Position numbers and translations under genes: made by a program. A DNA stretch of 64,000 bases from an uncultured Campylobacter sp. (GTDB lineage: Bacteria; Campylobacterota; Campylobacteria; Campylobacterales; Campylobacteraceae), in contig CAUPZQ010000007.1 in assembly GCA_963515915.1 (NCBI GenBank), forward strand, positions 180 through 64,179, given 5' to 3'. The first letter of the stretch is position 1; every line of letters starts with the position of its first letter. This document shows, in pieces, positions 4,244 to 60,183 of the stretch. The notes under the pieces were generated by a model. That model was not told where the DNA came from, did not search any database, and saw only the letters and a program-made list of their open reading frames with translations.

Positions 4244-6937
4244 ATGGCAAAAATCACGATCGACGGTAAAGCTTGCGAGTGCGACGAGGGCGAGTACATC
4301 CTGCAGGTCGCGCGTCGCTGCGGCGTTTTTATCCCTGCGCTTTGTTATCTAAGCGGAGGTACGCCGACGCTCGCATGCAGACTTTGTATGGTCGAAGCGG
4401 ACGGCAAGCGCGTCTATAGCTGCAACGCCAAGGCCAAGGACGGCATGGTCATCTACAGCCGCAGCCCTGAGATCGACGCTGAGCGCGAAGCGATTGCGCA
4501 GGTTTATTGTATCAACCATCCGATGGCGTGCGGGGTTTGCGATCAAAGCGGCGAGTGTGAGCTTCAAAATTTAGCCCATCTGATGCGCACAAATACCCAA
4601 AGCTACGCTATCCGCGATACGGCGCGCGAGGTACAGGATTGGGGATATTTAAGCTACGATCCTAGCCTTTGTATCGTCTGCGAGCGCTGTATCACCGCCG
4701 CAAAAGACCGCTTGGGCGTAGATGCGTTTAAGCTCGTTCCGCGCGGCGGAGACGCGCCGAGCAAGGAGCAAAAGGACGCGATGCCTAAAGACGCCTACGC
4801 CGTGTGGAACAAACTTCAAAAAAGCCTAATCGCGCGGGTAAATGAAAATGATGATTGCGTAAACTACGGCGAGAGCGCGGCGGTCTGCCCGACGGGGGCT
4901 CTAGTAGAGAGCGCGTTTAAATACGTTTCAAACGCCTGGGAGCTGCGTCAAATCCCCGCTTCCAACCCGCACAGCAGCGACTGCGAACTGCTTTATTACG
5001 AGGTCAAGCGCCGCGGCATAGGCGACCCGCGTGAAAAAATTTATCGCGTTAGCAGCGACATAAATTTTAGCGTTCTGCATGCAGGAGCGCGCTTCGGCTG
5101 GGATTTTTCAAACGAGCGGGCGAGCAAAAACGAAGCGGTTTTTAACCGCATCGTGCGCGGCATCGAGGATGGCGAGATCAAAAATATCAAATTTAATAGC
5201 TTTATCACCAACGAAGAGGCGCGGATTTTAGAGCTTTTGCGGCAAAAATTTAAGCTCGCTCTGATTAACGACGAAGCGCTTGCGTATCAAAAATTCCTGC
5301 GCGAATTTTCTAAGCTTAGCGGCACGAAATTTTATAATGCGGATTCGCAGACGGTTAAAAATAGCGATTTCATCGTAGTTTGCGGCACATTTTTACGCAG
5401 CGACGCGCCAAATCTGGGCTATACGGTAAACAGCGCCTGCAAGCTAAATAAGGCAAGCGGGATCTATTTTCATCCGTTTTGCGACGAGGGCATTAAGGGT
5501 TTTGGCAAAAATTTTATCCATCAGCCGCACGCTGCGGGCTTGGAGGCGCAGATCCTGCTTTGGATCTTGCAAAAGTTCGGGCGCGATCTGCCTGAGTGGC
5601 TGGATGCGAAACTCGCGGCGGAATTTGAAATTTCGCGCGCTGCGGCGAAGGAAAATTTAGACGAGAAATCCGTGGGTTCGCAAAATCCTGAAAATTCTGC
5701 GGAGGCAAATGGCTCTGAGAACGTTGCGAGTGCGAGCGGTGCCGAAAATTCCGCAGGCACAAGCGCCGCAGATTCCATAAAGAATTCCGCGCAGAATACC
5801 GAGAATCCTGCGGAAAGTAAAATTTCAAATTTCGCCCGTGCGCTAGGTCTGGATGAGCAAAAAGTAGATGAAATTTTGGCCAAAAAGGAGCATTTTTCGC
5901 TCATCATCGGCGAGGATTTTATCCGCACGCCAAATAGCGCTATGCTCGCGCGGCTGGCAGGCTTGGTGCAGCGCTATACGCCATTTAAAGTACTAGTGAT
6001 GCCGCCGCGCACTAACAGCCTGGGCGTCGCGCTCATCTGTGAGCTTAGCGCGCAAATGAGCGCGGGCGAGACGCTAGGCTACAACGAAGTGGGCGATATA
6101 AGCTTTGGCGTGCTGGAAGCGGATCTGGATGCGCCTAGTTTGGTGCAGCAGGAGGGCACGTTTACGAATTACGACAAGCGCGTGGTGCCTACTAATGCGG
6201 CGCTTGATTACGGCGGATACGAGCTAAACGACATCGCCTGTGCGCTGGGAGTTTGCGCGGAGCACGCGATCGACTATACACCTAGCTTGGGCGCGGATTT
6301 TGAGCCGATTAAATTTGACGATTTAGAAAATTTCTACGACAACGGCGGCGCAAACCACCGCGGATATGAGTTGCGAAACAAGGAGCTCGCTGCTAGCGAG
6401 GAGGAGTTTGAAATTTCGCTTTCAGCGCCGCTTAGCGCGGGCACAGGCGAAACTTTAATCTATGAGGCAAATCCGCTGCATCACTTCAATAAATTTAGCG
6501 GCGCAAGCAGCGGGCTGGGCGAAGCGGGCGCGCTGTATCTAAGCCCTGGCATCGCCGAAGCTCTGGGCGTGAGCGTGGGCGACGTCGTTAAAATTTACAA
6601 AGCGGACGGCGCGAGCAACGATAAAAAAACTAGCGGCGCGGGCAAAACGAGTGCCGCTAATGATAAAAGCGGTGCCGGTCGTGCAAAAAAAGCAGATCGC
6701 GTTAGCGACGCGCATAAAGCAGACGGCGCCGGTGATGAAAACAGCGAAAACGGCGCGACTGAGCTCGTAAATTTAAACTGCGAAATCGTCGCTAGCGTAA
6801 AGACCGATCCAGGCTTTAGCGGGGTGTATCTGCCGTATTTTGACGAGAAACTAGGCGGCGAGATATTTTTCAAAACCTCACGCTACGCAAGCGTGAAAAT
6901 CGATAAAATTCCAAAGGAGAGGGCAGATGAGCGATAG
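4244..6937 (+). CDS. nuoG: NADH:quinone oxidoreductase subunit G, with two internal low-complexity inserts
   Basis: N-terminal Fe-S Cys clusters are present (CYLSGG..CRLC; HPMACGVCDQSGEC; CIVCERC; AAVCPTGA), followed by a long molybdopterin-oxidoreductase-like body. Operon position fits. The 897 aa include the ENSA-type segment (about 5640-5830) and a DKK/GAG segment (about 6600-6760). Confidence 0.9.
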   Translation: MAKITIDGKACECDEGEYILQVARRCGVFIPALCYLSGGTPTLACRLCMVEADGKRVYSCNAKAKDGMVIYSRSPEIDAEREAIAQVYCINHPMACGVCDQSGECELQNLAHLMRTNTQSYAIRDTAREVQDWGYLSYDPSLCIVCERCITAAKDRLGVDAFKLVPRGGDAPSKEQKDAMPKDAYAVWNKLQKSLIARVNENDDCVNYGESAAVCPTGALVESAFKYVSNAWELRQIPASNPHSSDCELLYYEVKRRGIGDPREKIYRVSSDINFSVLHAGARFGWDFSNERASKNEAVFNRIVRGIEDGEIKNIKFNSFITNEEARILELLRQKFKLALINDEALAYQKFLREFSKLSGTKFYNADSQTVKNSDFIVVCGTFLRSDAPNLGYTVNSACKLNKASGIYFHPFCDEGIKGFGKNFIHQPHAAGLEAQILLWILQKFGRDLPEWLDAKLAAEFEISRAAAKENLDEKSVGSQNPENSAEANGSENVASASGAENSAGTSAADSIKNSAQNTENPAESKISNFARALGLDEQKVDEILAKKEHFSLIIGEDFIRTPNSAMLARLAGLVQRYTPFKVLVMPPRTNSLGVALICELSAQMSAGETLGYNEVGDISFGVLEADLDAPSLVQQEGTFTNYDKRVVPTNAALDYGGYELNDIACALGVCAEHAIDYTPSLGADFEPIKFDDLENFYDNGGANHRGYELRNKELAASEEEFEISLSAPLSAGTGETLIYEANPLHHFNKFSGASSGLGEAGALYLSPGIAEALGVSVGDVVKIYKADGASNDKKTSGAGKTSAANDKSGAGRAKKADRVSDAHKADGAGDENSENGATELVNLNCEIVASVKTDPGFSGVYLPYFDEKLGGEIFFKTSRYASVKIDKIPKERADER

Positions 6938-7932: not shown

Positions 7933-9123
7933 ATGGCAAGATACATTGAGATCGATAAACGAGCTCCTATTAGATCCGGCGGCGATAAGCTTCGCAGATT
8001 TCTAGCCCGCACCTTTAGTGGCGAGCTTTTCGTGGGGCTGTGGGTTGTTTTGCGAAATATGTTTAAGCGCGGTGGCTCGCATACGCTTCGGTATCCTATG
8101 GAAAAATTTGTCATGCCGCCTAGATACCGCGGCGTGCACAAGCTTATGCGCCTGCTTGAAAGCGGCAGCGAGCGCTGCATCGGATGCGGCTTGTGCGAGA
8201 AGATCTGCGTGGCAAACTGTATCGCGATGGAGACCAGCCTCGGCAGCGACGGTCGCAAAAAAGTAGATAACTACTCGATAAATTTAGGGCGCTGCGTCTA
8301 TTGCGGGCTTTGCGCGGACGTCTGCCCCGAGATCGCTATCGTGCACGGCTGCGAATATGAGCTTGCGAGCGAGCAGCGCGCGTATTACGGCTTTAAAGAG
8401 GATCTTTTGATTCGCGGCGAAAATTTATGTTTAAACGGCGCGGCGCAGGAGTTTGCAGGCTATGGCAGCCTGGATGAAAACGCAGGCGCGCGGATCAAGG
8501 TGACGCCGAATGCCTATATAAAAAGCGACGCCGCAAGCGATGAGCTAAGCTTAAAGAGCGCGGATTCAAATTTAAAAAGCGCCGCGGAAAGCTCTAAAAA
8601 AGAGGGTGTCGCTAGCGATAAAATTCTATTTTCAGGCGGCGCGGGCTTAAGCGGCGAAATTTCAGCCGAGCGGCAAGACGTGGGGCGGGCAAGCTTAAAG
8701 GAAAGATCCACCACGGACGCCGAAAATTCTAAAGAGAATTCCGCGGACGCTGAAAATTCTACGCTTGATTTGGCGCGAAATTCCAAAGGAAATTCCGCCT
8801 CACAAAATGCAAAAGATTCCGCTACGGATAGTAAAAATTTGGCGGAGAATTCTAAAGAAAATTTCGCTCCGCAGAGCGCCGAAGATTCCGCCGCTCAAAG
8901 TAAAAATTTTAAAGATAATTCTGTTGCGTCGCACGCCGAAAATTCTGTCGGTGAGCTTGCTACGGACGGCGATTCTGCGGAAAATTCTAAAGAAAATTCC
9001 GCCATGCAAGACTCGGGGAGTTCCGCCGCGCGAGGTAAAAAATCTAAGGCAAATTCCAAAAAGAATTCCGCCGCGGACGCTGAGAATTCTACGCAAAGCT
9101 CCGCGCAGGGGGAGGAGCAATGA
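7933..9123 (+). CDS. nuoI: NADH:quinone oxidoreductase subunit I with a long C-terminal low-complexity extension
   Basis: Two ferredoxin motifs (CIGCGLCEKICVANC and CVYCGLCADVCPE) lie within the first ~165 aa. The remaining ~225 aa are Asn/Ser/Ala/Glu/Lys-rich repeats (ENSKENSA, NSADAENST x2). Confidence 0.9.
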   Translation: MARYIEIDKRAPIRSGGDKLRRFLARTFSGELFVGLWVVLRNMFKRGGSHTLRYPMEKFVMPPRYRGVHKLMRLLESGSERCIGCGLCEKICVANCIAMETSLGSDGRKKVDNYSINLGRCVYCGLCADVCPEIAIVHGCEYELASEQRAYYGFKEDLLIRGENLCLNGAAQEFAGYGSLDENAGARIKVTPNAYIKSDAASDELSLKSADSNLKSAAESSKKEGVASDKILFSGGAGLSGEISAERQDVGRASLKERSTTDAENSKENSADAENSTLDLARNSKGNSASQNAKDSATDSKNLAENSKENFAPQSAEDSAAQSKNFKDNSVASHAENSVGELATDGDSAENSKENSAMQDSGSSAARGKKSKANSKKNSAADAENSTQSSAQGEEQ

Positions 9124-13349: not shown

Positions 13350-15114
13350 TCTTTTAAATTTAGCCTCGATCGCGCCTATGGCGATACTCGGAGGATTTGC
13401 CCTGCTGATGCTCGCGGTTTCGCTTTTTGCGCGCACGCTATCATATAAATTTTACGCCGTCATCACGATACTAGCTCTAGCTCTTGGCTTCGGGCTTGTT
13501 TTCGGATACAACAGCGGCATACGCGGGCTTTTCGACGTAATGCTAGTGGACGGAATCGCGACGCTATCGATGCTTATTATGCTCGCAGGCTCGATATTTT
13601 TCATCTTTTTGTCTTTGGGTACAAGAAGCGCGCACGAGTACCACACGGCGGAGTTTTTCGTGCTGTTTTTATTCGTGCTCGTGGGCTATGAGTTTATGGT
13701 CGCGAGCGAAAGCTTAATGATGATCCTCGTTGGGCTTGAGACGGGCTCGCTGGCGCTTTATACGCTAATCGCGCTTCACAACCGCGCCAGATCGGTAGAA
13801 GCGGCGCTAAAATACTTCATAATGGGCGCGCTGGGATCGGGCTTTTTCGCATTCGGCGCGGCGATGTTTTTTCTATTGACCGGCTCTATGGAAATTTCAA
13901 ATATCGCGCAGATTGCTAAGAGTTCAAATTTACAAACCAGCGTCCTACTTTTCGCCGCCTGCTCATTTATGATCGTCTCGATAGGATTTAAGCTCTCGCT
14001 GATCCCGTTTCACACCTGGACGCCCGACGTTTACGAGGGCGCGAGCTCGGCAATGGCGGGCTTTATGTCCGTTGTCCCCAAAATCGCGGGCTTTGTCGTG
14101 GCGATCAGGCTGTTTGAAGCGCTACAAAGCATCGGCGTGCAGTGGCTAAACATCGTGCTCTACGCCGTAGCGGTGCTTACGATGAGCTTAGCGAACCTTA
14201 TGGCGCTCGTGCAGCGCGACGTCAAGCGGATGCTTGCTTTCAGCTCCGTTTCGCACGCGGGCTTCGTACTCTGCGCGATCGTGATTGGCTCAACGCAGGC
14301 AAACGCGGCGCTTTTCACCTACTGGATCCTATATGCCGTGGCGAACCTCGGGGCATTTGCCTTCATCTGGTGTGTACGGCAAAGACATGCGCGCTCGTTA
14401 AATTTAAAATTTAAAACCCAAAACCCCGCTTTAAATTTAAACGCAAACGGCGAGAGCTCTATCTCAAACCCAAGGCCCGCTTTTTCGCAAAATCGCGAGC
14501 CGAGCTTTGCCGGCAAGTTAAATTTAGGCGCGAACGGGCAAAATTCAGCCTGCGACGAGTGGAGCGTTAAAGCGAGCGAGCAAAATTCTAAAGCAAGCGG
14601 GCCAAATTTGAAAGCGATCGAGCCCGGCGCGGAAGCGAGCTTTTTCGGCACTAAAACTTGCGAGCCAGGCGCCGAAATTTGCGAGCAAAGCTCTAAGTTC
14701 GCGGCTCGCTTCGAGCATCCGTTTGAGAAATTTGACGGGCTGATCCGCACCCATCCACTTTTTGCGCTATGCGCGGCGATCTTTATGCTCTCGCTTGCGG
14801 GTATCCCGCCGTTTAGCGTGTTTTGGGGCAAGATGTATCTGCTAAGCGCCGCGGTCAATTCGGGCTATTTCGCCCTCGCCGTCATCATGGCGGTAAATAG
14901 CGCGCTCGCGCTGTATTACTATCTGCGCCTCATCGTGCGTATGTTTTTGCACGAGCCGGGGGAGGACGCGGAGCTTGACGGCTCGCTGGGCGCGGTCTCG
15001 GTGCAGATAAAATTCGCCGTCGTGCTAGCTAGCGTGGCATGCGTGCTGGCGCCGTTTTTAGTGAAATTTCTAACCGGAGCAGTAAATAATTTCGTCTTTT
15101 TAAGCGGGTATTAG
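13339..15114 (+). CDS. nuoN: NADH:quinone oxidoreductase subunit N with a ~115-aa internal insert
   Basis: FHTWTPDVYEGASS, SVSHAGF and LSLAGIPPFSVFWGK are NuoN motifs. Residues ~348-462 (NLKFKTQNPALNLNANG...SSKFAARFEH) are non-TM low-complexity sequence interrupting the TM array. Confidence 0.9.
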   Translation: MQNNLLNLASIAPMAILGGFALLMLAVSLFARTLSYKFYAVITILALALGFGLVFGYNSGIRGLFDVMLVDGIATLSMLIMLAGSIFFIFLSLGTRSAHEYHTAEFFVLFLFVLVGYEFMVASESLMMILVGLETGSLALYTLIALHNRARSVEAALKYFIMGALGSGFFAFGAAMFFLLTGSMEISNIAQIAKSSNLQTSVLLFAACSFMIVSIGFKLSLIPFHTWTPDVYEGASSAMAGFMSVVPKIAGFVVAIRLFEALQSIGVQWLNIVLYAVAVLTMSLANLMALVQRDVKRMLAFSSVSHAGFVLCAIVIGSTQANAALFTYWILYAVANLGAFAFIWCVRQRHARSLNLKFKTQNPALNLNANGESSISNPRPAFSQNREPSFAGKLNLGANGQNSACDEWSVKASEQNSKASGPNLKAIEPGAEASFFGTKTCEPGAEICEQSSKFAARFEHPFEKFDGLIRTHPLFALCAAIFMLSLAGIPPFSVFWGKMYLLSAAVNSGYFALAVIMAVNSALALYYYLRLIVRMFLHEPGEDAELDGSLGAVSVQIKFAVVLASVACVLAPFLVKFLTGAVNNFVFLSGY

Positions 15115-15134: not shown

Positions 15135-16928
15135 ATGGAAAACTATGAAAGACTATTTAATGATTTGAAATCAAAAGGGATGATAATAGAAAATATCAAT
15201 TCTATTCATATTAGAAATTATATAAAAAAGGAAGATGAAAGATATATTATTAAGGATTTTAGAAATTCTCCCAGGATAAATGATGCGTTAGACCTGCCTA
15301 AGATTATTTGCGAGCTTGAGGTAGAATTCCAAAATTGTGATTTTTATAGTCTAAATATAACGGGAGTTATAGGAGAAAAAATAAGTTTTATTGGTTGTAA
15401 ATTTAAAGAAGCAATCTCATTTGAAAATTCTAAATTTAAAAAATACGTTTCGTTTGAGAAATCCGAATTTAACAGCATTGTTGACTTTTCAAATTGCATA
15501 TTTGAAAAACTGGTAAATTTTGATAACTCTGACGAGAAAGAACATACAAAACCAATAAATTTTTCTAATGTTATATTCCAAGATAACGCTTATTTTAATA
15601 ATATCGTATTTAATAATTATGCAGACTTCCATGGAGCCATATTTAAAAAAGTAGCATCTTTTTACGGCGTGCGATTTAAGGACTTTGTAAATTTTTCCGC
15701 CACTATATTTGAAGGAGATTTAAATTTAGTAAATTCTAAACTGGACTTTGAATATGAAGATTTGAAGCAAGCTATAATCAAAGCTGCAAAAAGCAGCTCT
15801 ATTAAAGAGACGGCGAATGATTTCCGCGATAGTTTTAGAGTTTTAAAAAATACAGCGACTAAAACGGGGAATCATCTTGATGCTATAAGATACTGCGTTT
15901 CCGAATTATATTGTAAGGAAATAGAGCTAGAAGACGATCTTAAAAATAAAGAATCTAAAGATCCGGCAAGAAAGAATATTAAAAATTTTATAGATTTAAT
16001 GCTATTAAAACTTTATCGTGTTACGAGCGACCATCATTCAAATCTCGTAAAGATCATTAATTTTGCCGCCACTGTTGTAGTGTTTTATGGGATCTTAAAT
16101 TGGTTTTTCCCTCGTTTGTATGTATGCTTAGAAGAAGGGAAGCGCGGCTTACAAAATTGGTTATTTTTCTTTGTTTTTATCTTTATAGCAGTTATGTTTG
16201 CAATTTGGATTATAAGGGCGGTCGCTCAAAGGTGGAAAGACCTAGTATTTGTCTTAATACTTCCAATTGCCCTTATTGCCTTGCTTCAGTTTTCTTTTCG
16301 GGATTCATTTATGTCGGAAGCTAATGATATTCTTAATACTACGGGTGCATTTGTTCTTATATTTTTATCCCTTATTTGCGGGTATACCTATACCTCTGAA
16401 AAGATGGGATACAAAATCTCTTACGTTTTTCATATTTCTATTTATGTTTGCTTTATAATGTTTTTATTCGTTAAGCCAGAGCTTTTTAATCCATTTAATG
16501 GGATATTTCAAAGTACAAAAATAGAGCCTAATAAATTTAGAAATTATGTATTAGAAAACAATGAAAGTGCACCAAAGGAAATTTTGAATTTAATAAAGAT
16601 TAATAGCGGCAAAAGTGTGGATTATGATATTAAACTAATTGCGAATCATCGCCTTGCAATTCTAAAGCAAATAGACAGCGAAAATAACCAATCAAAACCC
16701 GAAGGAAGATTAAATGTATTCAGTTATTTTTGTCCTTCCGCATATTTAGAAGAATCTACGAATGATAAAAAATATGTGCAAATTTATAACATTCTTTTGG
16801 ATGATGAAATTTCGGAAATATCTAAAAAAATATCAAAAGCGGGCTATTTGGTTTATGCTTTTATCATGCTTTTGATTATTTACTCTCTTACAAAAACGGC
16901 GCGTCGTAACTCCATCGTACCTAGTTAA
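15135..16928 (+). CDS. Pentapeptide-repeat-like N-terminal domain fused to a multi-pass membrane domain; function unknown; likely horizontally acquired
   Basis: 597-aa ORF with an AAGAGGA RBS, 20 nt after the nuoN stop. Residues ~65-205 form serial 5-residue-period F/L/I repeats (CDFYSLNITG..ISFIGCKFKEAISFENSKFKKYVSFEKSEFNSIVDFSNCIFEKLVNF..). About 5 TM segments lie at aa ~305-460, plus a C-terminal TM. G+C hand counts: 10/60 at 15181-15240 and 21/60 at 16081-16140, against 41/60 in nuoN at 14941-15000. Confidence 0.75.
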   Translation: MENYERLFNDLKSKGMIIENINSIHIRNYIKKEDERYIIKDFRNSPRINDALDLPKIICELEVEFQNCDFYSLNITGVIGEKISFIGCKFKEAISFENSKFKKYVSFEKSEFNSIVDFSNCIFEKLVNFDNSDEKEHTKPINFSNVIFQDNAYFNNIVFNNYADFHGAIFKKVASFYGVRFKDFVNFSATIFEGDLNLVNSKLDFEYEDLKQAIIKAAKSSSIKETANDFRDSFRVLKNTATKTGNHLDAIRYCVSELYCKEIELEDDLKNKESKDPARKNIKNFIDLMLLKLYRVTSDHHSNLVKIINFAATVVVFYGILNWFFPRLYVCLEEGKRGLQNWLFFFVFIFIAVMFAIWIIRAVAQRWKDLVFVLILPIALIALLQFSFRDSFMSEANDILNTTGAFVLIFLSLICGYTYTSEKMGYKISYVFHISIYVCFIMFLFVKPELFNPFNGIFQSTKIEPNKFRNYVLENNESAPKEILNLIKINSGKSVDYDIKLIANHRLAILKQIDSENNQSKPEGRLNVFSYFCPSAYLEESTNDKKYVQIYNILLDDEISEISKKISKAGYLVYAFIMLLIIYSLTKTARRNSIVPS

Positions 16929-32343: not shown

Positions 32344-32440
32344 GGCGAGAGAGGGAGGGAATCGAACCCCCCGGAAAACGGTCAACCGCCCTCCTATCGG
32401 ATTTGAAGTCCGCAGACGCCACCAGGTCGCCATCCTCTCC
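32344..32440 (-). tRNA. selC: tRNA-Sec (anticodon UCA), selC-like
   Basis: The reverse complement reads GGAGAGGATGGCGACCTGGTGGCGTCTGCGGACTTCAAATCCGATAGGAGGGCGGTTGACCGTTTTCCGGGGGGTTCGATTCCCTCCCTCTCTCGCC. It has anticodon loop CUUCAAA (UCA), a 9-bp long variable arm (GGAGGGCGG/CCGTTTTCC with G-U pairs), and T-loop GGTTCGATTCC. I could not fold the acceptor/D arm into the textbook bacterial 8/5 Sec form by hand, so the ends are approximate. Confidence 0.72.
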
Positions 32441-47645: not shown

Positions 47646-48197
47646 ATGCGAATACGACTACCACATGTGCCATATATCGCGCATAAAATAGCGCTGGATC
47701 TGCTAAACTCGGGCTGCGTTACGCTTAGTGCAGGCATAGAGCCCGTCGCGAAGGAAGCTGACGAGATCATAAGGACCGATCTGCAAAAAGAAAGAGCGAT
47801 AGACGAGCGCGCAAATGAGCTGATAGATGAGCGCATAAGCGAGCTAGATGAGATGAGCGTGAATAAAAAAGATATGTTTTGGCTCATCAAACGCCACATC
47901 GCAAACGACGAGAATTTCGAGCTAAATTTTGAGGATCGCTACGGCACCATATCGCATAAAATTTTAGAAACCGTTTGGAAGAAAAATTTGATCGATTACA
48001 AAGTCTCGGAAAACAGGCTGAAGACGATAATTTATAACGCGATCGACGAATATCTTAAGAATTATCAAAAGATTGAGGATACGGTCTATGAAAAGATCGA
48101 GGGCTACAAGCAAAAATTGATCCCAGGTACCGAAGAATACGAGCTTGTGTTTGAAAAGCTCTACGAAGAGGAGCTAAGAAAACGGGGCATGTTATAA
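47646..48197 (+). CDS. Conserved hypothetical protein (DUF507-like; tentative)
   Basis: 183 aa, a charged helical protein with an AAAGGA RBS. Family assignment is from memory of the MRIRLPHVPYIAHKIALDLL-type N-terminus only. Confidence 0.55.
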   Translation: MRIRLPHVPYIAHKIALDLLNSGCVTLSAGIEPVAKEADEIIRTDLQKERAIDERANELIDERISELDEMSVNKKDMFWLIKRHIANDENFELNFEDRYGTISHKILETVWKKNLIDYKVSENRLKTIIYNAIDEYLKNYQKIEDTVYEKIEGYKQKLIPGTEEYELVFEKLYEEELRKRGML

Positions 48198-49315: not shown

Positions 49316-49336
49316 TTTTTAAAATTTTGCCCGCAC

Positions 49337-49366
49337 TAAATTTTACCGCGGTCGCGCGGTAAAATT
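49337..49366 (+). terminator. Hairpin after carA (terminator-like)
   Basis: AAATTTTACCGCG-gtcg-CGCGGTAAAATTT is a perfect 13-bp stem whose 3' arm runs into TTTT. Confidence 0.6.
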
Positions 49367-50223
49367 TTAAATTTACGGCAAGCTTTAAATTTTAATGCGG
49401 TCTTTGCGTCGTAAATTTAAAGCCCGTCGCAGTCTGGATGATTGCAGGCTGGAGCGGTACGCAAAGTGTGCTTTTGCGGGCTGAAGATTGCCGCGGTGAT
49501 TTTGGATTAAGCAGCTTTTTGGATGAAACGAATCTGTGCTAGTCGCGATTTTAAATTTAAACTGGCTGCGCGCCGTATGCTTTTCATTCGTGTGATTTCG
49601 TGTCTGTATAACTTCTAAGCTCGCAGCTAAATTTCATGCGTTTTAAATTTAAAAATTGGGCTTGGTGCGCTTAGCTCTTTTAAACAGATCCTGCGGTACA
49701 TTTAGCATGGCTTCAAGCTTTTAAATTTGACGAGTCGTCTTGTTGCCGTCAAGTTATGCAAATAAACGCCTTGCCGCCCGTAAAATTTTTTCTAGCGCCG
49801 TTCGCCCACTAAAATCTTATTGACGCAGTTTTGCCAGTTATGCCTAGTTTTTTGGTAAACTATACCTTGCCCTTCAAATCTTATCGTCGCTGTTTCATTT
49901 CCCTCTAAAATATTTGCCTAAAATAAAATTCCGCTCCGCCGCGTAGTGAAATTTTACCTACGCTAGCTTTGGAATTTTACTTTCAGCCGCTCTTAAATCT
50001 CTTTCGCACCGATAAGATTTAACTCGCATCACTTTAAATTTTTGTCCCATTCCTGGGCTGCGGTTTTTATCCACGCTTGTTTTAGATCCCGCTCATATTT
50101 GCACCTAAAATAATAGTCGTGTTACTTTGTGAAATTAAATTTTTAACTTAACATTATTTTAAGCTCAATAAAAGAGAAAATTTGAAAGAATTTCATTTGA
50201 AATTTCGCCTTTAGGGGTCTGCT
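49367..50223. repeat. ORF-free intergenic tract with degenerate direct repeats, upstream of the response regulator gene
   Basis: About 0.9 kb with no ORF of 60 aa or more. GCCCACTAAAATCTTATTGACGCAGTTTT (49804) and GCCCTTCAAATCTTATCGTCGCTGTTT (49869) match at about 21 of 28 positions and lie 65 bp apart. Weaker copies lie near 49901 and 49987. There are many TAAATTTAAA/AAATTTT words. Confidence 0.7.
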
Positions 50224-51182: not shown

Positions 51183-54095
51183 TTGAAAAATTTGCCCTCT
51201 AAAAATCTTTTTGTCTACACTAGCTCGCGTGCGCTACGCGCGGCGCTGCAAAACGAGAGCGGCGGCGTGTTGGCGCCCAGGATTACGTTGGCGGAATTCT
51301 ACGAAAAGGCGCTTTTTGTACCGGATCTTGTCGCTTGCGGCGAGATAGACCGCGCGCTTTTTATGAAGCAGGCGGTGAGCGAGAGCAAGCGCGCGGACGA
51401 AAGGCTTAAATTCCCTAGCGAGCTTTACGAGTTTATGCGCAACCGCGAGTATCTTTTCGGCTTTTTCAAGGAGCTTGCGACGGAGCGCGTAAGTATCGAT
51501 GCGCTCGATCTTAGCGACACCTATGCGTGGTATGCCGAGCATTTTGAAATTCTGCGAGAGCTAGCGGGGGCGTATGCAAGGATTTTGCGTGAGCATGGAT
51601 TTTACGACGAGATCACGCTGCCCGCGCTTTATGAGTTAAACGAATCCTATCTGCGCGGATTTGAGCGGATAGAAATCAACATCGACGGCAATCCTAGTAC
51701 ATTTGAGTTCGAGGTTTTTAAGCGCGCTGCGGAGCTGAGCGAGGTCGTACTGAGCTTTAGAGCCACGACTTTAAATTCCAAGCCCGTGCGCGCGGTGGAG
51801 GAGCTTTGCGGCATAAGCCTAGAGTTAGGTTTTGCATACCGCGTAAATCTTGGTACGGGTGAAATTCTAAGCCGCGAGCCGCTAAGCGTGGGCGGAGCGG
51901 TTGTGTGTAGAGGCTTTGAGTTGCGAAGCTTGCAGGCGAGCTATGTTTTTGAAAAAATTTCATCCTTCGTGCGCGCGGGCATCGCGCCGGAGCGCATCGC
52001 GGTAATTTTGCCCGACGAGAGCTTTGCCGGCACACTGCGGCTTTACGACGAGCGCATCGCAAGGGCTCGCGGTTCGCACCGCATGCTAAATTTTGCGATG
52101 GGAGAGAAGCTTAAAGATAGCCTATTTTACGTAACGCTAGAGAAAATTTCGCAGTGCTTAAAAGAAGCGCGCATGCCGAAATTTGGCGTAGATTACCACG
52201 CATTCAAAAGTCCGAATGGAGGATTTTTGGATACGGGGGATTCCGCGACACAGCAAAATTTAGCGCTAGGGAATTTCGCTTCTGATAATTCTGCATCGCA
52301 AAATTTAGCACAGCAAAATTCCCCGTTTGATTGCGAAATTTTTTCAAATTCTAAAATGGATTTAAATTTTATATCTGCGCGAGAGTTTGAAAATACGGCA
52401 AATTTTGAAATTCTGCACGAAATTTCGGCGGAACGCGCGGATAGCGCGGGAGAGCAAAGCTTTTCTTTGGATATTGCAGAGTTGCAAGAGTCCTTGGAGT
52501 GTGCGCAGCAGCCCGATTATTCGGTTAGCGCAAAACAGCAAGAGCTTTTAAAGCAGCGTCAAGAGAGCCTACGACACTCTATGCAGCGGGAGCATATAGA
52601 GCTTGAGGAAGAAGATAGGTATTCAAAAAGCCCTAAACAGCGCGATCGCTTTAGGCACTCTAAAATGCGCGAGGACGCAGATGAATATCCGCAGCGCCCA
52701 AACCCGCAGGAGCTTGATCTGTTTTTTGCGAGTGTGGGCGTGGATGAGGCACTTTTTGGTGAGTTCGCACGCGATTTTGCAAAGCAAGTAAGCTTTGAGC
52801 ATTTCGAGGCGCTAATTGCCAAGCTCGCCTGTTTACCCAAAATTAGCGACGCGCTGCTGCAAGAAAAGCTAAAAGAGCCGCTATATCTAATTAAAATTTT
52901 GCTTCGAAAATTTAAGGACGAAAACCTAAACTTAGGCAATCTGATCGATCTTTTTTTGCTAGAAATTTCGCGCATTAAGCTTGATGATGTTCGTGGCGGA
53001 AAGGTCACGGTAATGGGGCTTTTAGAGAGCCGCGGACTGCAATTTGACGGCGTGATAATCCCCGATTTTAACGATGATCTGGTGCCTAAGCGCAGTAGCG
53101 GAGAGATGTTTTTAAACTCCGCTTTGCGCGCTAGAGCAGGGCTCATCAGCCACGCAGACCGCGAAAATTTACAAAGATTTTACTACGACGGCTTGCTAAG
53201 AGGCGCTAAAAAAAGCGCGATTTGCTATCTGCAAAGCGTCGAGAAATTGCCTTCGCGGTTTTTGAAAAGCTTTGAAGTGCAACAAGACGCGGAATTTTCG
53301 CAGGAAGATTATTTGCGGCTTTTTGGGAGAGAGGAATTTAAGCCCGCCTTATGCGGACAAGAAGATCCCGTGGCTCGCCATGATTTTTTTGCCGAGGAGC
53401 TGTCGTTTTCGCGGTTGGATACGTTTTTAGAATGCAAGAGGAAGTATTATTACCGCTACGTTTTCGGGCTGAGGGAGGGGCTAAAATTCGGTGAGGACAA
53501 TGCGCTTTTGGGCAAAATTTTACATACGAGTTTTCAGCGTTTATACGAGCGAGCGGGGATGAAATTTAGCATGGAAAAATTTCGCCCTATTTATTCGCAG
53601 CTTGCGCGAGAAGCAGGGATTGCGCGCTTTGATGCGGAGCTTGAGCTAAAATCGGTAGAAAAGCTAGCTAGGCTTTTAGAAGAGCATGAGCAAATTTGGA
53701 GCTTTAGCGGTAGTGAAGTATCGCTAAAAGGCGAGCTTGACGGAGTGCGGCTGAGCGGGCGGATCGACCGCATCGACGAAGATAAGGCAGGGCGGAAGTT
53801 TATCATCGATTACAAACGTGGTTCAGCTAAAAAACATATGGAAAAATTCCAGCTTACGTTTTATCGCGCGCTTTTGGCTCAGGAGTGCGAATGCGCCTAT
53901 CTATCGCTAAAAGACTGCGCGTTTGCAGCTCCTGGCGACAAAACGCCTAGCTTAGAAAACCTACGCGAGACGCTAAACTCTATCGGCAAGGAATTTGCAA
54001 GCGAGGTTGCTTTTACACGCACGGAAGCGGTGCAAAGCTGCGAATACTGCGATTATAAAATCATTTGCAAGGGGCAGATTGATGGCAAAATTTGA
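51183..54095 (+). CDS. addB: AddB-type helicase-nuclease subunit (PD-(D/E)xK nuclease with a C-terminal Cys cluster), carrying a ~170-aa internal insert
   Basis: The C-terminal nuclease block is GRIDRIDED..FIIDYKRG, and Cys residues (CKRKYYYRY ... CEYCDYKIIC) resemble the AddB Fe-S/nuclease domain. It overlaps the addA start. The start is uncertain: TTG at 51183 with an AAAGGA RBS, or TTG at 51129 as in the ORF track. Confidence 0.75.
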   Translation: MKNLPSKNLFVYTSSRALRAALQNESGGVLAPRITLAEFYEKALFVPDLVACGEIDRALFMKQAVSESKRADERLKFPSELYEFMRNREYLFGFFKELATERVSIDALDLSDTYAWYAEHFEILRELAGAYARILREHGFYDEITLPALYELNESYLRGFERIEINIDGNPSTFEFEVFKRAAELSEVVLSFRATTLNSKPVRAVEELCGISLELGFAYRVNLGTGEILSREPLSVGGAVVCRGFELRSLQASYVFEKISSFVRAGIAPERIAVILPDESFAGTLRLYDERIARARGSHRMLNFAMGEKLKDSLFYVTLEKISQCLKEARMPKFGVDYHAFKSPNGGFLDTGDSATQQNLALGNFASDNSASQNLAQQNSPFDCEIFSNSKMDLNFISAREFENTANFEILHEISAERADSAGEQSFSLDIAELQESLECAQQPDYSVSAKQQELLKQRQESLRHSMQREHIELEEEDRYSKSPKQRDRFRHSKMREDADEYPQRPNPQELDLFFASVGVDEALFGEFARDFAKQVSFEHFEALIAKLACLPKISDALLQEKLKEPLYLIKILLRKFKDENLNLGNLIDLFLLEISRIKLDDVRGGKVTVMGLLESRGLQFDGVIIPDFNDDLVPKRSSGEMFLNSALRARAGLISHADRENLQRFYYDGLLRGAKKSAICYLQSVEKLPSRFLKSFEVQQDAEFSQEDYLRLFGREEFKPALCGQEDPVARHDFFAEELSFSRLDTFLECKRKYYYRYVFGLREGLKFGEDNALLGKILHTSFQRLYERAGMKFSMEKFRPIYSQLAREAGIARFDAELELKSVEKLARLLEEHEQIWSFSGSEVSLKGELDGVRLSGRIDRIDEDKAGRKFIIDYKRGSAKKHMEKFQLTFYRALLAQECECAYLSLKDCAFAAPGDKTPSLENLRETLNSIGKEFASEVAFTRTEAVQSCEYCDYKIICKGQIDGKI

Positions 54096-57000
54096 AAATT
54101 ATCTGGCGCTTGAAGCAAGCGCAGGCAGCGGCAAGACCTTCAATCTCGCGGTCAGGTTCATCGAGCTGGTGCTAAAAGGCGAGCCGATCAACGAAATTTT
54201 AGCGCTTACCTTTACTAAAAAAGCGGCTGCTGAGATGAAAACGCGCATCGTGGAGAAATTTCAAAATTTGCTGCTTTTGCAGGATGGTTCGTTAAAGCCT
54301 AGCGCCGAGCTGCAGCAAATTTGCGAGGATCTAAATATGAGCGCGGATGAGGTTATGGCAGCGCAACAGCGCCTACTGCCTAAATTTTTAAGCGAGAGCC
54401 TAAACGTCTTTACCTTCGATGCGTTTTTTGCAAAGGCTCTGCGCTCGTTTGCGTTAAACAGCGGCATTGATCCAAGCTTTGAAAACGATGAAGGGATTTT
54501 AGGCGTGCAGCAGGCGGCGTTTTTAGGTGCGATTTGTAAAAACGAAGCGCTATTAAGAGAGGTCGTGGACTACGTAAGCGACTCAGGAATGACAAAGAGC
54601 GAGTTTTTAAATAGCTTGCAAAGCATTTGGAGAGGCGATATAAGCATAAATCCGCCCACGCTTCCCGCAAGCTCCGCGCTAGCAGAGATAAATGAAATTT
54701 TATCTCGCTTGCAAAAAGCGGCGAGAGATGCGGGCGTAAGCGCTGGAGCCGTAAATGGGCTAAGCCCTGTTAGTGATCTGTCAAAATTATCTTCTGGTTT
54801 CATTCTTTCGGCTCTTGCCAACGGCAGTTTCGATTATCCGCGCTCACAGCTTAAAAAAATTTCGCATCTTGACGGCGAGTTAGCAAAGCTAAAAGACGCC
54901 ATAGCTCGCGAAATAGCGTGGATGGATGCGATATATGCGGCTAAGCTGGCAGGACTAATTAGAATTTATGCCGAAGCGCTTAAATCGGTGCAGCGCAAAA
55001 GCGGCAAGCTCACGTTCGGCGATGTCACCGCAGCTGTGCACTCGCTGCTAAATCCAAACGCAGAGGCGTTACAGGGCAACCGCGAGCTTTTGTATTTCAG
55101 GCTCGATTCTAAAATCACGCATATTTTAATCGACGAATTCCAAGATACCGACATTTGCCAGTATGAAATCATGCTGCCGCTAATCTCTGAGGCGCTTGCT
55201 GGCAAAGGAGCGGAAGAGCGCTGCGGTAGCTTTTTTTACGTAGGCGATAAAAAACAGAGCATCTATAAATTTCGCGGCGCAGAGAGAAAAATTTTTGATA
55301 TTTTGCGCGAGCAGTTTAGCCAAATCAAAACGCAGAGTCTGCCGCGCAATTATCGTAGCTTAAAACTCATTGTAAAATTTGTAAATGAGATCTTGCGCGA
55401 TAAATTTGCGTCTTATGAAGATCAAATCGCGGCAAATAAGCTAGATGACGATCTGCCCGCTTCGGTGCTGCAAAAAATCAAGGATTATCCTCTTTCTCAT
55501 CCGCGAATGCCACTATTTGAGGTGCAAAGCGACGATTATGGCTACGTAGCAGCGTTTTCATACGACGACGTGCTAAAGGGGGCTGCGGAGCAAGCGCGCA
55601 GGCTTGTTGAGGAGTGCGGCGTGAGAGCTGATGATATCGCGATTTTATGCTGGAAAAACGAGCATGTAAGCGCGCTAAAAGAGATGCTATCGGAATTTTG
55701 CGAGGTGTGTAGCGGCTCAAATAAGGCTCTGCGTTGCAGCGAGCAGATAAATGCCGTAATTCAATACGCGAAATTCTGCGTAGGTGGCGATGAAATTTAT
55801 CTGCGAAATGCCGAAGCGATTTTGGGTAGGCAGCTTAAAAAGATAGCGGTCGATCTGCATAAAAATGCGCAAAAAACGGCAGAATTTATAGCTAGCTCGC
55901 TGAAATTAAATTTTGTCGATCCAGATCTGCTACTGTTTTTTGAGACGCTGGCAAAATTTAATAGTTTTAGCGAGTATCTGTTTGCAAACGACGAAACGGA
56001 GGTATTTGCCAAGGAACAAAGCGGCATTAAAATTATGACCGTGCATAAGTCCAAGGGGCTTCAGTTCCCGCACGTAATCGTCTGCGACCGCATCGGAGGA
56101 AAAGACCGGGGTGAGAGCTCAAAGCTCGCAACGGACTATGATTTTGCCACGCATAAGTGGAGAATTTTTTATAAATTTGCGAGCAGAAAGAGCCTGGATA
56201 CGGAATTTGCAGCATTAATGGATGAAAACGATCGCTCTGCGCATGAAGAGGATATAAACAAGCTCTACGTGGCATTTACCCGCGCCGAACGCTCACTCAT
56301 CATCGTAAAACGCTCCGAGGCAAAAATAGATCAATACAATTATAGCTTTTTTTCGCCTTACGCCAAAAAGACCAAGGGCGCGGGTGTCGTGAAGTGGCTG
56401 GATATCCCGGATTTTCAATACGGCTACATAATACCAAGCTCCGTAAAATCAGAAGAGCAGCCACCGCGCAAAAAGATCGCGCTCGTAGCGGGCGAGCCTC
56501 AAGGCGCGCAAGAAAAAGCAGGCGGCGGCGAAACGGAGGCGCTAAGCGCGATATATTTCGGCGAGGCGCTGCACTATGCTCTGGAGATGAGCGAAGGCTT
56601 TGGGCCGGATGAAATTTTGCGAGGAGTGAGCTTAGCAAGAGGTCGCTACGCTAAATTTTTAAATGACGCGGATTTTGAAAATATCGCGGCGCGGGCGCTA
56701 GGACTAAGCAAAAACGAGGAATTTTTAGCTCTGATAAAGGGCGCTTGGGCTTATAAAGAGATGCCGATAAAAAGCTCGGAGGAGGAACTTTTGCGCGTAG
56801 ATCTGGCATGCTTTAGGCAGGATGAAATTTTACTTTTTGACTACAAAAGCTCCGAAAAATACCTCGCGCAAAACAAAGCTCAAGTGGCGCGGTATAAAAG
56901 CGTGATCCGCGAGTTTTATCCGCATACGCGGGTGCGCGCCTTTGTGCTGGCTCTCGAAACTGCGGGCGCTAAGCTGATCGAAGTAAATGAGGAGGGATAA
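54082..57000 (+). CDS. addA: AddA/RecB-type UvrD-family helicase-nuclease
   Basis: Walker A ASAGSGKTF, DEFQDT (motif II), YVGDKKQSIYKFRGA, TVHKSKGLQF and a C-terminal nuclease-like LFDYKS. The ATG at 54082 is preferred over the ORF-track start at 53995. Confidence 0.85.
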   Translation: MAKFENYLALEASAGSGKTFNLAVRFIELVLKGEPINEILALTFTKKAAAEMKTRIVEKFQNLLLLQDGSLKPSAELQQICEDLNMSADEVMAAQQRLLPKFLSESLNVFTFDAFFAKALRSFALNSGIDPSFENDEGILGVQQAAFLGAICKNEALLREVVDYVSDSGMTKSEFLNSLQSIWRGDISINPPTLPASSALAEINEILSRLQKAARDAGVSAGAVNGLSPVSDLSKLSSGFILSALANGSFDYPRSQLKKISHLDGELAKLKDAIAREIAWMDAIYAAKLAGLIRIYAEALKSVQRKSGKLTFGDVTAAVHSLLNPNAEALQGNRELLYFRLDSKITHILIDEFQDTDICQYEIMLPLISEALAGKGAEERCGSFFYVGDKKQSIYKFRGAERKIFDILREQFSQIKTQSLPRNYRSLKLIVKFVNEILRDKFASYEDQIAANKLDDDLPASVLQKIKDYPLSHPRMPLFEVQSDDYGYVAAFSYDDVLKGAAEQARRLVEECGVRADDIAILCWKNEHVSALKEMLSEFCEVCSGSNKALRCSEQINAVIQYAKFCVGGDEIYLRNAEAILGRQLKKIAVDLHKNAQKTAEFIASSLKLNFVDPDLLLFFETLAKFNSFSEYLFANDETEVFAKEQSGIKIMTVHKSKGLQFPHVIVCDRIGGKDRGESSKLATDYDFATHKWRIFYKFASRKSLDTEFAALMDENDRSAHEEDINKLYVAFTRAERSLIIVKRSEAKIDQYNYSFFSPYAKKTKGAGVVKWLDIPDFQYGYIIPSSVKSEEQPPRKKIALVAGEPQGAQEKAGGGETEALSAIYFGEALHYALEMSEGFGPDEILRGVSLARGRYAKFLNDADFENIAARALGLSKNEEFLALIKGAWAYKEMPIKSSEEELLRVDLACFRQDEILLFDYKSSEKYLAQNKAQVARYKSVIREFYPHTRVRAFVLALETAGAKLIEVNEEG

Positions 57001-57933: not shown

Positions 57934-57938
57934 TGTTT

Positions 57939-59055: not shown

Positions 59056-59074
59056 TCTTTTCTAGATCCACATA

Positions 59075-59100
59075 AGCGGGGCTTCGGCTCCGCTTTTTTT
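59075..59100 (+). terminator. Rho-independent terminator after the OmpA-family gene
   Basis: AGCGGGGC-ttcg-GCTCCGCT followed by TTTTTTT. Confidence 0.85.
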
Positions 59101-59121
59101 ATATCCAAATTAAATTTTAAA

Positions 59122-60183
59122 ATGCCAAAATTCCAAACCACTCTGCTTTTTGATCTCGATGGTACGCTCATAGACTCCACGCCCGCGATACTGGACGGCT
59201 TTCACTACGCGTTTGCGCATTTGGGCGCTGCAGAGCCTAGCGACGAAGCGATTAAAAAGCTTATCGGGCATCCGTTAGGGGTAATGTTTGAGCGCCTTGG
59301 CGCGGCACGGGATGTGCAGAATTTCGTGCTCGCCTACAAACAGCGATACGCGCAGATATTTTTGGATCAGACCGTTTTGCTAGGTGGTGCGTTCGAGGCG
59401 GTTCGCGCGGCGAACAGGTTTGCAAATTTAGGCGTCGTAACCACTAAAACGTCGAAATTTTCTAAAATTTTATTACAGCATCTGGGTATCGCGGAATTTT
59501 TCGGCACCATTGTCGGGCGAGAGGACGTGCAAGATCCCAAACCAAGCGCCGAACCGATTTTAAAGGCCCTCGAAAATTTAGGAATTTGCGGCGCGACCGC
59601 TAGCAAGAGTTCAAATACAATTAGCAGTAAAGCTTGCTATGCTACTGCCGATAAAAATACAAGCGCTGCTAGCAGGAGCGCGATTTTGAATGAAATTTCA
59701 GCGCCTGATTTAAAGAGCCTTCTTGCGCTTGATCCTGATCCTAGCAAAGTTTACGAGCAAAATTTAAGCAGCATCGCGAGTCAAAATTCTGATAGAATTT
59801 CGTTTAAAAATTTAAGCGAAGTAAAGAGCGATAGACACGAGGCTGGCGATAAGAGCCGAAAGGACAATATCGGCACCGAGGAAGAGAGCGATAAAGGCGG
59901 AGCGCGCGGCAGTAAAATTTATAATGCGCATGAGCCAAATTTCACTCCTTGTTGTTATGACAAAATTTGCAGCGATAAAATCACGCCTTCTGTTAGCCAA
60001 AATATCTTTATGATAGGCGATACGTCGCTTGACGCCATCGCGGCAAAGTCAGCAGCGGTGCGAAGCGTGGGAGTGAGATGTGGCTACGGCAGTGCCGCGG
60101 AGCTGCAGGCATACTTCGAGTTCGTATGCGCGGACGCAAAAGAGGCGGTTGAGCTGATACGCGAAATTTTATCAAAATTTTAG
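59122..60183 (+). CDS. HAD-superfamily phosphatase (phosphoglycolate phosphatase-like) with a ~140-aa insert
   Basis: Motif I is LLFDLDGTLIDS, motif II is GVVTTKT, then K..P.P, and motif IV is MIGDTSLDAIAAKSA. The insert sits between ILKALENLGI and NIFMIGDT. Confidence 0.8.
   Translation: MPKFQTTLLFDLDGTLIDSTPAILDGFHYAFAHLGAAEPSDEAIKKLIGHPLGVMFERLGAARDVQNFVLAYKQRYAQIFLDQTVLLGGAFEAVRAANRFANLGVVTTKTSKFSKILLQHLGIAEFFGTIVGREDVQDPKPSAEPILKALENLGICGATASKSSNTISSKACYATADKNTSAASRSAILNEISAPDLKSLLALDPDPSKVYEQNLSSIASQNSDRISFKNLSEVKSDRHEAGDKSRKDNIGTEEESDKGGARGSKIYNAHEPNFTPCCYDKICSDKITPSVSQNIFMIGDTSLDAIAAKSAAVRSVGVRCGYGSAAELQAYFEFVCADAKEAVELIREILSKF

Follow-up and report, generated by a model that had tools for sequence, protein, structure and literature searches.

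Why do seven conserved housekeeping proteins encoded within one 64-kb stretch of Campylobacter DNA contain long, hydrophilic, low-complexity segments, and what has shaped the DNA that encodes these segments? The stretch (referred to here as the window; 64 kb from an uncultured Campylobacter, ~47% G+C) includes the nuo operon, moaA, queE, the gene for an MMPL/RND exporter, addB/addA, and other housekeeping genes, and the segments, or inserts, are located in NuoG, NuoI, NuoN, QueE, the exporter, AddB, and a HAD phosphatase. The results described below make it fairly likely that the inserts are slippage-born, probably disordered loops that have been shaped by selection or drive, acting at the level of the DNA, for the hexamer RAATTY (where R is a purine and Y a pyrimidine). 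Both in-frame low-complexity inserts and iterated words for uptake or methylation have precedents in other systems; what is new is their combination, with the word conserved inside inserts that are neutral in other respects.

Eight in-frame segments and their sites

A sequence-only reading of this DNA had proposed that seven housekeeping proteins carry in-frame low-complexity inserts, and all seven were confirmed, with eight segments of 57–201 residues, two of them in NuoG. With boundaries set by anchoring on conserved flanking peptides, those encoded in the nuo operon, all on the forward strand, are NuoG insert 1 (residues 467–524, nucleotides 5642–5815), which is a lineage-specific version of a hypervariable linker; NuoG insert 2 (residues 790–846, nucleotides 6611–6781), which is rich in Gly, Ala, Lys, and Asp; the C-terminal tail of NuoI (residues 196–396, nucleotides 8518–9120), which occupies everything between the end of the conserved core (...TPNAY) and the stop codon; and the NuoN insert (residues 353–450, nucleotides 14395–14688), at a loop site. 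The remainder are in QueE (residues 85–155, nucleotides 20478–20690, forward strand), in the exporter (residues 511–608, nucleotides 33393–33686, reverse strand), in AddB (residues 360–526, nucleotides 52206–52706, forward strand), where a RAATTY-rich Asn/Ser/Gln part is followed by a Glu/Arg/Gln/Lys-rich part, and in the HAD phosphatase (residues 156–289, nucleotides 59587–59988, forward strand), between the Lys-containing motif and the GDxxxD motif. An unbiased low-complexity scan of all proteins of the window recovered the same set without the HAD phosphatase and no further protein; low complexity is less marked in the HAD insert and in the second half of the AddB insert than in the other inserts. 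The earlier suggestion that the presence of inserts in three complex I subunits is remarkable did not hold up, since three of the 13 nuo genes, given seven of 55, is an unexceptional proportion (hypergeometric p = 0.20).

The composition of the inserts agrees with the previous description of Asn/Ser/Ala-rich stretches with peptides of the ENSA, QNS, and NF type. They contain 10% Asn, 17% Ser, and 14% Ala, as compared with 5, 9, and 11%, respectively, in the whole proteins; 65–90% of their residues are Asn, Ser, Ala, Glu, Lys, Gln, Asp, Gly, or Thr and 7–21% are hydrophobic, whereas individual words are frequent (ENS occurs 15 times, QNS 7 times, NS 34 times, and NF 9 times). A role as N-glycosylation sequons (D/E-X-N-X-S/T) was considered for the ENS and KNS words and rejected, as they do not fit the sequon by eye and most of the host proteins are cytoplasmic.

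Every insert preserves the reading frame of its host. The coding frame is free of stop codons in each of them, whereas the other two sense-strand frames contain 2–22 stops each; an antisense frame is likewise stop-free in NuoG inserts 1 and 2 and in NuoN, and the remaining five frames of the NuoI tail have 1–18 stops. The inserts are found again in ~52 independent genome assemblies and in 120 QueE protein clusters, so that an assembly artefact, which the sequence-only reading had left as a possible explanation, is excluded.

Relatives of the window were obtained from a one-genome-per-species scan with the conserved N-terminal 165 residues of NuoI as query, which gave 53 loci at 94–98% protein identity, labeled as uncultured Campylobacter, with one C. 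gracilis and one more distant relative (L051), together with 26 outgroup loci from Helicobacter, Sulfurospirillum, Sulfurimonas, and others. Because the DNA of nuoH and nuoM in the 52 close loci is 94–98% identical to that of the window (82–90% in L051), the window can be assigned to the C. gracilis species complex. Comparisons within the complex are therefore between ~52 sister species with ~95% DNA identity in flanking genes. The QueE homologues examined are the best 120 of a large search, all of them gracilis-complex proteins (120 clusters) with no outgroups among them, and wider comparisons were made with solved structures for QueE, the HAD phosphatase, the MMPL/RND exporter, and NuoN and with 50%-identity representatives for AddB.

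Outgroup alignments, solved structures, and Pfam bear out the claim that family motifs resume in frame, which is true for every internal insert. On the basis of sequence alignment, insert sites appear to correspond to short gaps of solved homologues. Residues 348–461 of NuoN match residues 387–395 of 8e9g chain N, an 8-residue loop in the solved NuoN; residues 54–163 of QueE match residues 71–106 of the 4NJG chain; and residues 134–292 of the HAD phosphatase match residues 134–157 of the 6f2x chain, in which the segment is missing. Fifteen solved HAD homologues of 207–243 residues match this protein, the absence of the insert being seen in the one printed alignment, that with 6f2x, and Pfam places HAD_2 at residues 8–155 and Hydrolase_like at 292–331. 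Each of the 150 AddB representatives listed (mostly ~770–800 residues long) matches the query in at least two stretches, roughly residues 25–350 and 525–985, with residues 350–525 unmatched in the aligned examples; relatives with no more than 53% identity all have a gap here, and the insert of a relative of 67% identity (P0121) is shorter and cannot be aligned but has QNFK/ENFK words. The exporter insert is flanked on either side by MMPL domains identified by Pfam. Solved structures align only with the C-terminal transmembrane part of the exporter (residues 726–903), a region that does not contain the insert; in its best PDB match, Plasmodium falciparum NCR1, an Asn-rich tract of that protein is aligned to the exporter insert.

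The alignments with outgroups show a variable Lys/Glu linker, or nothing, at the site of NuoG insert 1, and outgroup NuoI ends with ...TPLAY or a short tail. The NuoN insert, NuoG insert 2, and the NuoI tail are missing in the seven to nine outgroups compared (seven for NuoN). NuoG insert 2 is present across the gracilis complex and is absent from all of the outgroups compared and from L051. The latter has inserts at the NuoN, NuoI, and NuoG insert 1 sites, none of which can be aligned with those of the complex; its NuoN insert is at the same site and unalignable, although the flanks are ~95% identical at the protein level, its NuoG insert 1 site carries a RAATTY-poor expansion of ~164 residues, and its NuoG (1094 residues) has a private 141-residue insert of GDKIS/DEIS/DKIL repeats. 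NuoI also varies in length among Helicobacter species (L054–L073; 209–292 residues), in some of which it has a short hydrophilic C-terminal tail of 20–85 residues, without RAATTY enrichment, and the NuoI C terminus seems to be generally tolerant of extensions in Campylobacterota. An ancient origin, with homologous segments shared across Campylobacterota, thus applies weakly to the NuoG insert 1 site and the short Helicobacter NuoI tails but not to the inserts of NuoN and AddB or NuoG insert 2, which have no counterpart in orthologues, or to those of QueE and the HAD phosphatase, which have none in solved homologues. Since L051 and the AddB relative differ from the window in the presence and sequence of their inserts, the inserts are old at some sites and younger at others, with gain still continuing.

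RAATTY in the window and within the inserts

The ENSA, KNSA, QNS, NLN, KF, and NF peptides have a common DNA word behind them that went unnoticed in the sequence-only reading; they are RAATTY read in different frames (GAAAATTCYGC for ENSA, AAGAATTCCGC for KNSA). RAATTY occurs 655 times in the window against an expectation of 76, an 8.6-fold excess. Its variant AAATTT is the commonest hexamer in the window, with 448 copies, as compared with 86, 95, and 26 for the other three variants, and heads the hexamers under both order-1 and order-2 Markov models (z = 38 and 33, respectively); AATATT and TTTAAA have 12 and 177 copies. The ratio of observed to expected RAATTY is 9.3 over 894 kb of the complex and 10.3 in L051, and is 0.5–1.5 in the 26 outgroup loci.

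RAATTY has a density of 23.7/kb in the inserts, 20.0/kb in intergenic DNA, and 8.0/kb, 7.6-fold over expectation, in other coding DNA. Among the inserts it is densest in the exporter (~40/kb), reaches ~28/kb in NuoG insert 1, and is represented by a single site (5/kb) in NuoG insert 2. The word is scarce in acquired DNA, as judged from one island of 30% G+C located between nuoN and miaA (15135–16928, forward strand), where it has a density of 9.5/kb, 2.5-fold over expectation. This island is found in 4 of ~40 related loci at 86–88% identity, encodes a protein of 597 residues with pentapeptide repeats (Pfam PF13576) and C-terminal hydrophobic segments, and looks like a recently acquired accessory gene.

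It had been claimed that the DNA of the inserts is unlike the flanking coding DNA and like the local intergenic DNA. The first part is supported by a 4-mer Jensen-Shannon divergence between inserts and coding sequence of 0.038, as compared with 0.010 ± 0.002 for random chunks of coding sequence. The second part stands for RAATTY density but not otherwise, because by k-mer spectrum the inserts are at least as distant from intergenic DNA as ordinary coding sequence is, their G+C content is 48% as against 41%, and NuoG insert 2 is almost free of RAATTY. The k-mer test thus rejects an equivalence of inserts and intergenic DNA, and the inserts are a third compositional class. The spacing of RAATTY has only the 3-nucleotide periodicity of coding DNA and no helical phasing of 10–11 nucleotides, an analysis that is confounded by orthologous resampling. 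Non-coding DNA makes up ~12% of the window, apparently a high share for a Campylobacter, and includes three intergenic stretches of ~0.9–1.2 kb (39615–40654, 49316–50223, and 60184–61407) that are crowded with AAATTT words (~20 RAATTY/kb) and have no open reading frame of at least 100 codons; the only Rfam match within them is a tRNA-Gln at 61165–61238.

Within the complex, the inserts are 79–86% identical to the window in DNA sequence, with indels of 3–12 nucleotides, whereas flanking coding DNA is ~95% identical; the values are 0.83–0.86 for NuoG insert 1, against ~0.95 for its flanks, and 0.79–0.85 for NuoG insert 2. Identities at codon positions 1, 2, and 3 are 0.884, 0.875, and 0.839 in the inserts, as compared with 0.973, 0.985, and 0.871 in the flanks, where four-fold sites are 0.844 identical. 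All three codon positions of the inserts therefore diverge at about the synonymous rate, which indicates that their peptide sequence is close to neutral. Similarly, across the 120 QueE homologues the insert is 0.67–0.88 identical and the core 0.93–1.0, but the two halves of the insert differ, the RAATTY-dense half having an identity of 0.87–0.88 and the RAATTY-poor half 0.67–0.71.

This background of neutral divergence does not extend to RAATTY, which within the inserts is ~3–4 times better conserved than the surrounding bases, the synonymous position included. The AATT core is 0.96 identical, as compared with 0.85 for other A/T sites (p = 5 × 10−6), and divergence per column is 0.038 in the motif and 0.103 outside it (p = 7 × 10−11). 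Variants that destroy the motif have a frequency of 0.008, whereas those that preserve it (R to R or Y to Y) have a frequency of 0.036, similar to that of other, neutral variants (0.034). The synonymous change of AAT to AAC within the motif has a frequency of 0.003–0.014, as compared with 0.05–0.13 for other T-ending two-fold codons (p = 0.01), and T to C is tolerated at the Y position (0.062) but not in the core (0.018). The NuoN alignment has the same character, with invariant AT words separated by drifting GC spacers.

The frame in which the word is read is also biased. Of the 69 RAATTY sites located in the inserts, 57, including all 11 of the exporter insert, are read as xxR-AAT-TYx (Asn-Ser/Leu/Phe), whereas in other coding sequence the three frames account for 142, 154, and 114 sites, respectively. 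Asn-Ser is written AAT-TCN in 33 of 34 instances in the inserts but in 11 of 39 elsewhere, and the RAATTC variants, which encode Ser, have about a four-fold higher frequency in inserts than in intergenic DNA. The effects extend to ordinary genes, where Lys-Phe is written AAA-TTT 82 times against 47 expected, and dipeptides encoded by the motif are enriched 1.3–1.7-fold (KF 1.47, NF 1.66, EI 1.67) while their reverses are not. It should be recognized that the frame bias is partly inherited through duplication of units, since the private NuoG insert of L051 uses only the Lys/Glu-Ile-Ser frame.

Origin of the inserts and the forces acting on them

The inserts are rich in internal repeats. The best tandem repeats of the window are located within them, the highest score being that of QueE, which has three 24-nucleotide units at 20595–20666 (ENSLNLTS), and repeats with periods of 15–24 are present in the NuoN (period 21), QueE, exporter (periods 15 and 21), and AddB inserts. 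The NuoI tail consists of nine degenerate 26-nucleotide units, GCSGAAAATTCTAAAGARAATTCCGC (A-E-N-S-K-E-N-S-A), nested in three copies of ~85 nucleotides. The block ENSTLDSARNSKENSASQSAEDSA occurs in two copies, and removal of the intervening DNA from a long tail leaves a tail of the short class; the two classes are thus separated by a deletion or duplication between these copies. Searches of the eight inserts against the window with BLASTN (word size 9) gave no match longer than 17–20 nucleotides outside the insert itself, the sole significant matches being repeats of 22–24 nucleotides inside the NuoI tail. No consistent or common terminal structure was found when terminal repeats and target duplications were sought at the inserts. 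NuoG insert 1 is bracketed by a 17-nucleotide, 94% complementary inverted repeat (5617–5633, GGCGGAATTTGAAATTT; 5820–5836, AAATTTCAAATTTCGCC), and no flanking inverted repeat was found at the other seven inserts. The repeat at NuoG insert 1 is made of AAATTT words, has a BLAST E value of 0.16, and may be due to chance. Another tandem repeat of 24 nucleotides (2.7 copies, score 72) lies outside the listed inserts at 47794–47859, in an open reading frame of 183 codons (47646–48197).

Insert lengths differ between species, in multiples of three nucleotides. NuoG ranges from 867 to 927 residues and NuoN from 586 to 608, whereas NuoH and NuoM are constant at 331 and 515 residues, respectively; QueE is nearly constant (320–322 residues). 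The NuoI tail varies from 107 to 224 residues across 54 genomes, and its end, ...QGEEQ, is near-invariant in 50-odd tails of any length, with a few instances of QEEEQ, QGDEQ, QREEQ, and HGEEQ. The stop codon of nuoI overlaps the start of nuoJ (GGAGGAGCAATGA; GGGGAGGAGCAATGA; 9100–9123), and the invariance is presumably due to the Shine-Dalgarno sequence, or ribosome-binding site, and overlapping start of nuoJ being encoded there. The pressure that keeps a 200-codon tail open may therefore come partly from translational coupling as opposed to a function of the tail. The NuoN insert is dimorphic at 14392–14540, where about 5 of 40 sequences have a strongly divergent haplotype with 27 additional nucleotides at the 5' edge, which suggests an exchange of alleles by recombination.

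These features support the proposal in the sequence-only reading that repeat expansion is tolerated in surface loops, given the internal repeats, the changes of length in threes, and the probable location of the sites at loops, linkers, or a terminus. The inserts would then be lineage-specific, translated segments at permissive sites (short loops, inter-domain linkers, and the C terminus) that are born and change in length through replication slippage and unequal recombination between local repeats of 15–26 and ~70–85 nucleotides. At the protein level the constraint would be that the frame remains open and the peptide hydrophilic, the amino acid sequence being otherwise almost unconstrained, and this would cause RAATTY to be read mostly as xxR-AAT-TYx, with RAATTC (Ser) favored. 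At the DNA level there would be strong selection or drive in this lineage to carry the palindromic RAATTY, mainly as AAATTT, with the result that RAATTY words between drifting GC-rich spacers come to fill any DNA under weak constraint, be it intergenic or insert. Such filling would explain both the resemblance of the inserts to intergenic DNA and their richness in Asn, Ser, Ala, Glu, and Lys, as GAAAATTCYGC reads E-N-S-A.

RAATTY is the N6-methyladenine (m6A) target motif of the CtsM-type methyltransferase. C. jejuni takes up only DNA that is methylated at this motif (PMC10046745, PMC8468864); its methylation is widespread among species of Campylobacter, and prophages contain the motif less often than expected (PMC13436318). 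From published counts, C. jejuni has ~8.4 RAATTY sites/kb (PMC4294202) and C. fetus ~6.6 sites/kb (PMC13436318 for the count), densities that by our own estimate from base composition are roughly two-fold over expectation; the window has 10.2 sites/kb in a much GC-richer genome. Uptake-biased recombination, the drive that has been proposed for DNA uptake sequences (DUS) and uptake signal sequences (USS), appears by analogy to be the most likely force behind the enrichment, because the pattern parallels that of uptake sequences (PMC2817400). A tentative and rather doubtful extension of this proposal is that the inserts persist in essential genes as clusters of RAATTY tags, DNA-level cassettes translated as harmless disordered loops; RAATTY would be a methylation-dependent tag for self-recognition or uptake that has been amplified about nine-fold by uptake-biased recombination. 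If true, the tag clusters would make uptake and recombination of the essential gene that flanks them more probable.

Several considerations weigh against the proposal of slippage-born loops shaped by DNA-level selection for RAATTY. The link between RAATTY in this lineage and methylation-dependent uptake is drawn by analogy; no methyltransferase gene is present within the 64-kb window, and no methylome or competence data for the C. gracilis lineage were found in the searchable literature. The statistics for motif conservation come from three genes with ~21–33 motif sites in sequences that are related and not independent, and alignment programs may tend to match repeated words to one another, although gaps made up only 3% of the parts tested. 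A to G at the R position is no more frequent than motif-destroying A to G, and the R/Y degeneracy of the constraint is therefore only half supported. The preference for the Asn frame is not universal, as all nine RAATTY sites in the private NuoG insert of L051 are in frame 1 (KIS/EIS), and both NuoG insert 2 and the expanded NuoG insert 1 of L051 are poor in RAATTY, so that the birth of an insert is independent of the word. Translation and disorder of the inserts are probable, judging from their open frames and composition. Finally, the conservation of RAATTY could arise from the binding of nucleoid proteins, the curvature of A3T3 tracts, or repair bias. It may be added that AlphaFold2 gave QueE a mean predicted local distance difference test score of 34 from an alignment of 28 sequences, all of them at least 88% identical, and that this score carries no information on the disorder of the insert.

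A further explanation, unlikely but with some merit, is that the word owes its enrichment and conservation to biased mutation or repair, or to a part in DNA structure (A3T3 curvature or sites for nucleoid proteins, for example), and has no relation to uptake, the inserts being neutral products of slippage that equilibrate to that bias. In its favor, TTAA, ATTT, TTTA, and AAAT are as conserved in the inserts as AATT, AAATTT far outnumbers the other RAATTY variants, and A to G at the R position is not relaxed. This explanation does not readily account for the lack of conservation of A/T sites outside the motif (0.85 overall, with T the least conserved base), the rarity of other hexamers of A3T3 composition, or the tolerance of T to C at Y but not in the core, and the absence of the enrichment from AT-richer outgroups and its weakness in the foreign island are as expected of uptake or self-recognition motifs. 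Selection for the proteins is a quite improbable alternative; here the inserts would be functional modules (for example, disordered tethers or regulatory tails for the assembly of complex I or for protein contacts) and the words a by-product of favored Asn and Ser codons. The retention of inserts at the same sites in ~52 species without loss, the minimum length of the NuoI tail and the good conservation of its first ~100 residues, and the hydrophilic character of the peptides are consistent with such modules, but they would not be expected to diverge at about the synonymous rate at all codon positions or to be unalignable between the complex and L051 where the flanks are ~95% identical. The near-exclusive use of AAT-TCN and the depletion of AAT to AAC are not predicted by selection at the protein level, and RAATTY is also enriched and dense in non-coding DNA.

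The sequence-only reading had also raised colonization of genes by a repeat family or miniature element, and an in-frame miniature mobile or palindromic element, similar to the Rickettsia palindromic elements (RPE) or to miniature inverted-repeat transposable elements, of which the inserts are decayed copies, would fit with the in-frame insertions in housekeeping genes, the palindromic nature of RAATTY and near-palindromic nature of the 26-nucleotide NuoI unit, the inverted repeat that brackets NuoG insert 1, and the new inserts of single lineages (NuoG insert 2 in the complex and the 141-residue NuoG insert in L051). This explanation is very improbable and is largely refuted by the results: no match of more than 20 nucleotides exists between inserts or between inserts and intergenic DNA, consistent terminal repeats or target duplications are lacking, the insert lengths (57–201 residues) do not cluster around a unit length, local duplication is visibly the mode of growth, and the repeat at NuoG insert 1 consists of over-abundant words with an insignificant E value. 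In addition, the inserts are never simply present or absent among the sister species; their positions are fixed and their lengths shift gradually. Assembly or annotation artefacts, or removal of the segments before the mature protein is formed (through an intein, an intron, or translational bypass), have nothing but the unusual composition in their favor and can hardly be entertained in view of the stop-free coding frame and the recurrence of the inserts in independent assemblies and QueE clusters; furthermore, Pfam identifies only host-family domains, and no intein/Hint domain, in the insert proteins and Rfam only two tRNAs, and no intron, in the window.

Known systems and neighboring features

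We know of no report that USS build long inserts. USS and DUS are non-palindromic, unmethylated words of 9–12 nucleotides that are recognized directly by the uptake machinery, whereas RAATTY is a palindrome of 6 nucleotides with a role in uptake that is known only in C. jejuni and depends on m6A. Rickettsia palindromic elements resemble the present inserts in being in-frame segments at tolerant sites of housekeeping proteins, with the same DNA between genes. However, they form a discrete family of ~100–150 bp with a consensus and a hairpin, while no two of the inserts described here share more than 20 nucleotides and their growth is by local duplication. Housekeeping proteins of P. falciparum also carry Asn-rich low-complexity inserts that, as here, are lineage-specific, polymorphic in length, and near-neutral, with a composition driven by nucleotide bias, but this organism is eukaryotic, and its genome, at 80% AT, has a general AT bias, in contrast with a bias for one specific hexamer in a genome of 47–50% G+C. 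The HIP1 palindrome of cyanobacteria, GCGATCGC, is methylated and common inside genes; it differs from RAATTY in being another word in another phylum and, to our knowledge, does not nucleate long in-frame low-complexity inserts. Like RAATTY, HIP1 is short and highly abundant in the genome, and it is reported to improve natural transformation in a manner that depends on homology and methylation (bioRxiv 10.1101/2024.09.10.611283). Close parallels exist with the USS and DUS of Pasteurellaceae and Neisseriaceae, which, like RAATTY, are massively over-represented words that gather where proteins are poorly conserved and show a bias in reading frame, raise the frequency of the peptides they encode, and are scarce in recently acquired genes (Findlay & Redfield 2009, PMC2817400).

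No prior description of the inserts, or of the hyper-enrichment of AAATTT/RAATTY in the C. gracilis group, was found in the searchable literature, which covers few subscription journals. If the proposal of DNA-level selection for RAATTY is correct, it would join the low-complexity inserts of conserved bacterial proteins with the methylated word that governs transformation in Campylobacter and would provide a natural system for asking whether a methylated palindrome of 6 nucleotides can act like DUS or USS, accumulating by molecular drive and reshaping proteomes. The system has the advantages of ~50 close species, a G+C content high enough for the word to stand out, and the neutral DNA of the inserts as a control. 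The lengths and alignments of complex I, QueE, AddB, and other proteins are inflated in this group, and the segments need to be masked in phylogeny and structure modeling.

Two features adjoin genes that carry inserts. A gene for tRNA-Sec (anticodon TCA; 32347–32440, reverse strand) is located directly downstream of the exporter gene. The longest addA-like open reading frame (53995–57000) overlaps addB by ~100 nucleotides (53995–54095), and its true start is probably the ATG of MAKFENYL, near 54080.

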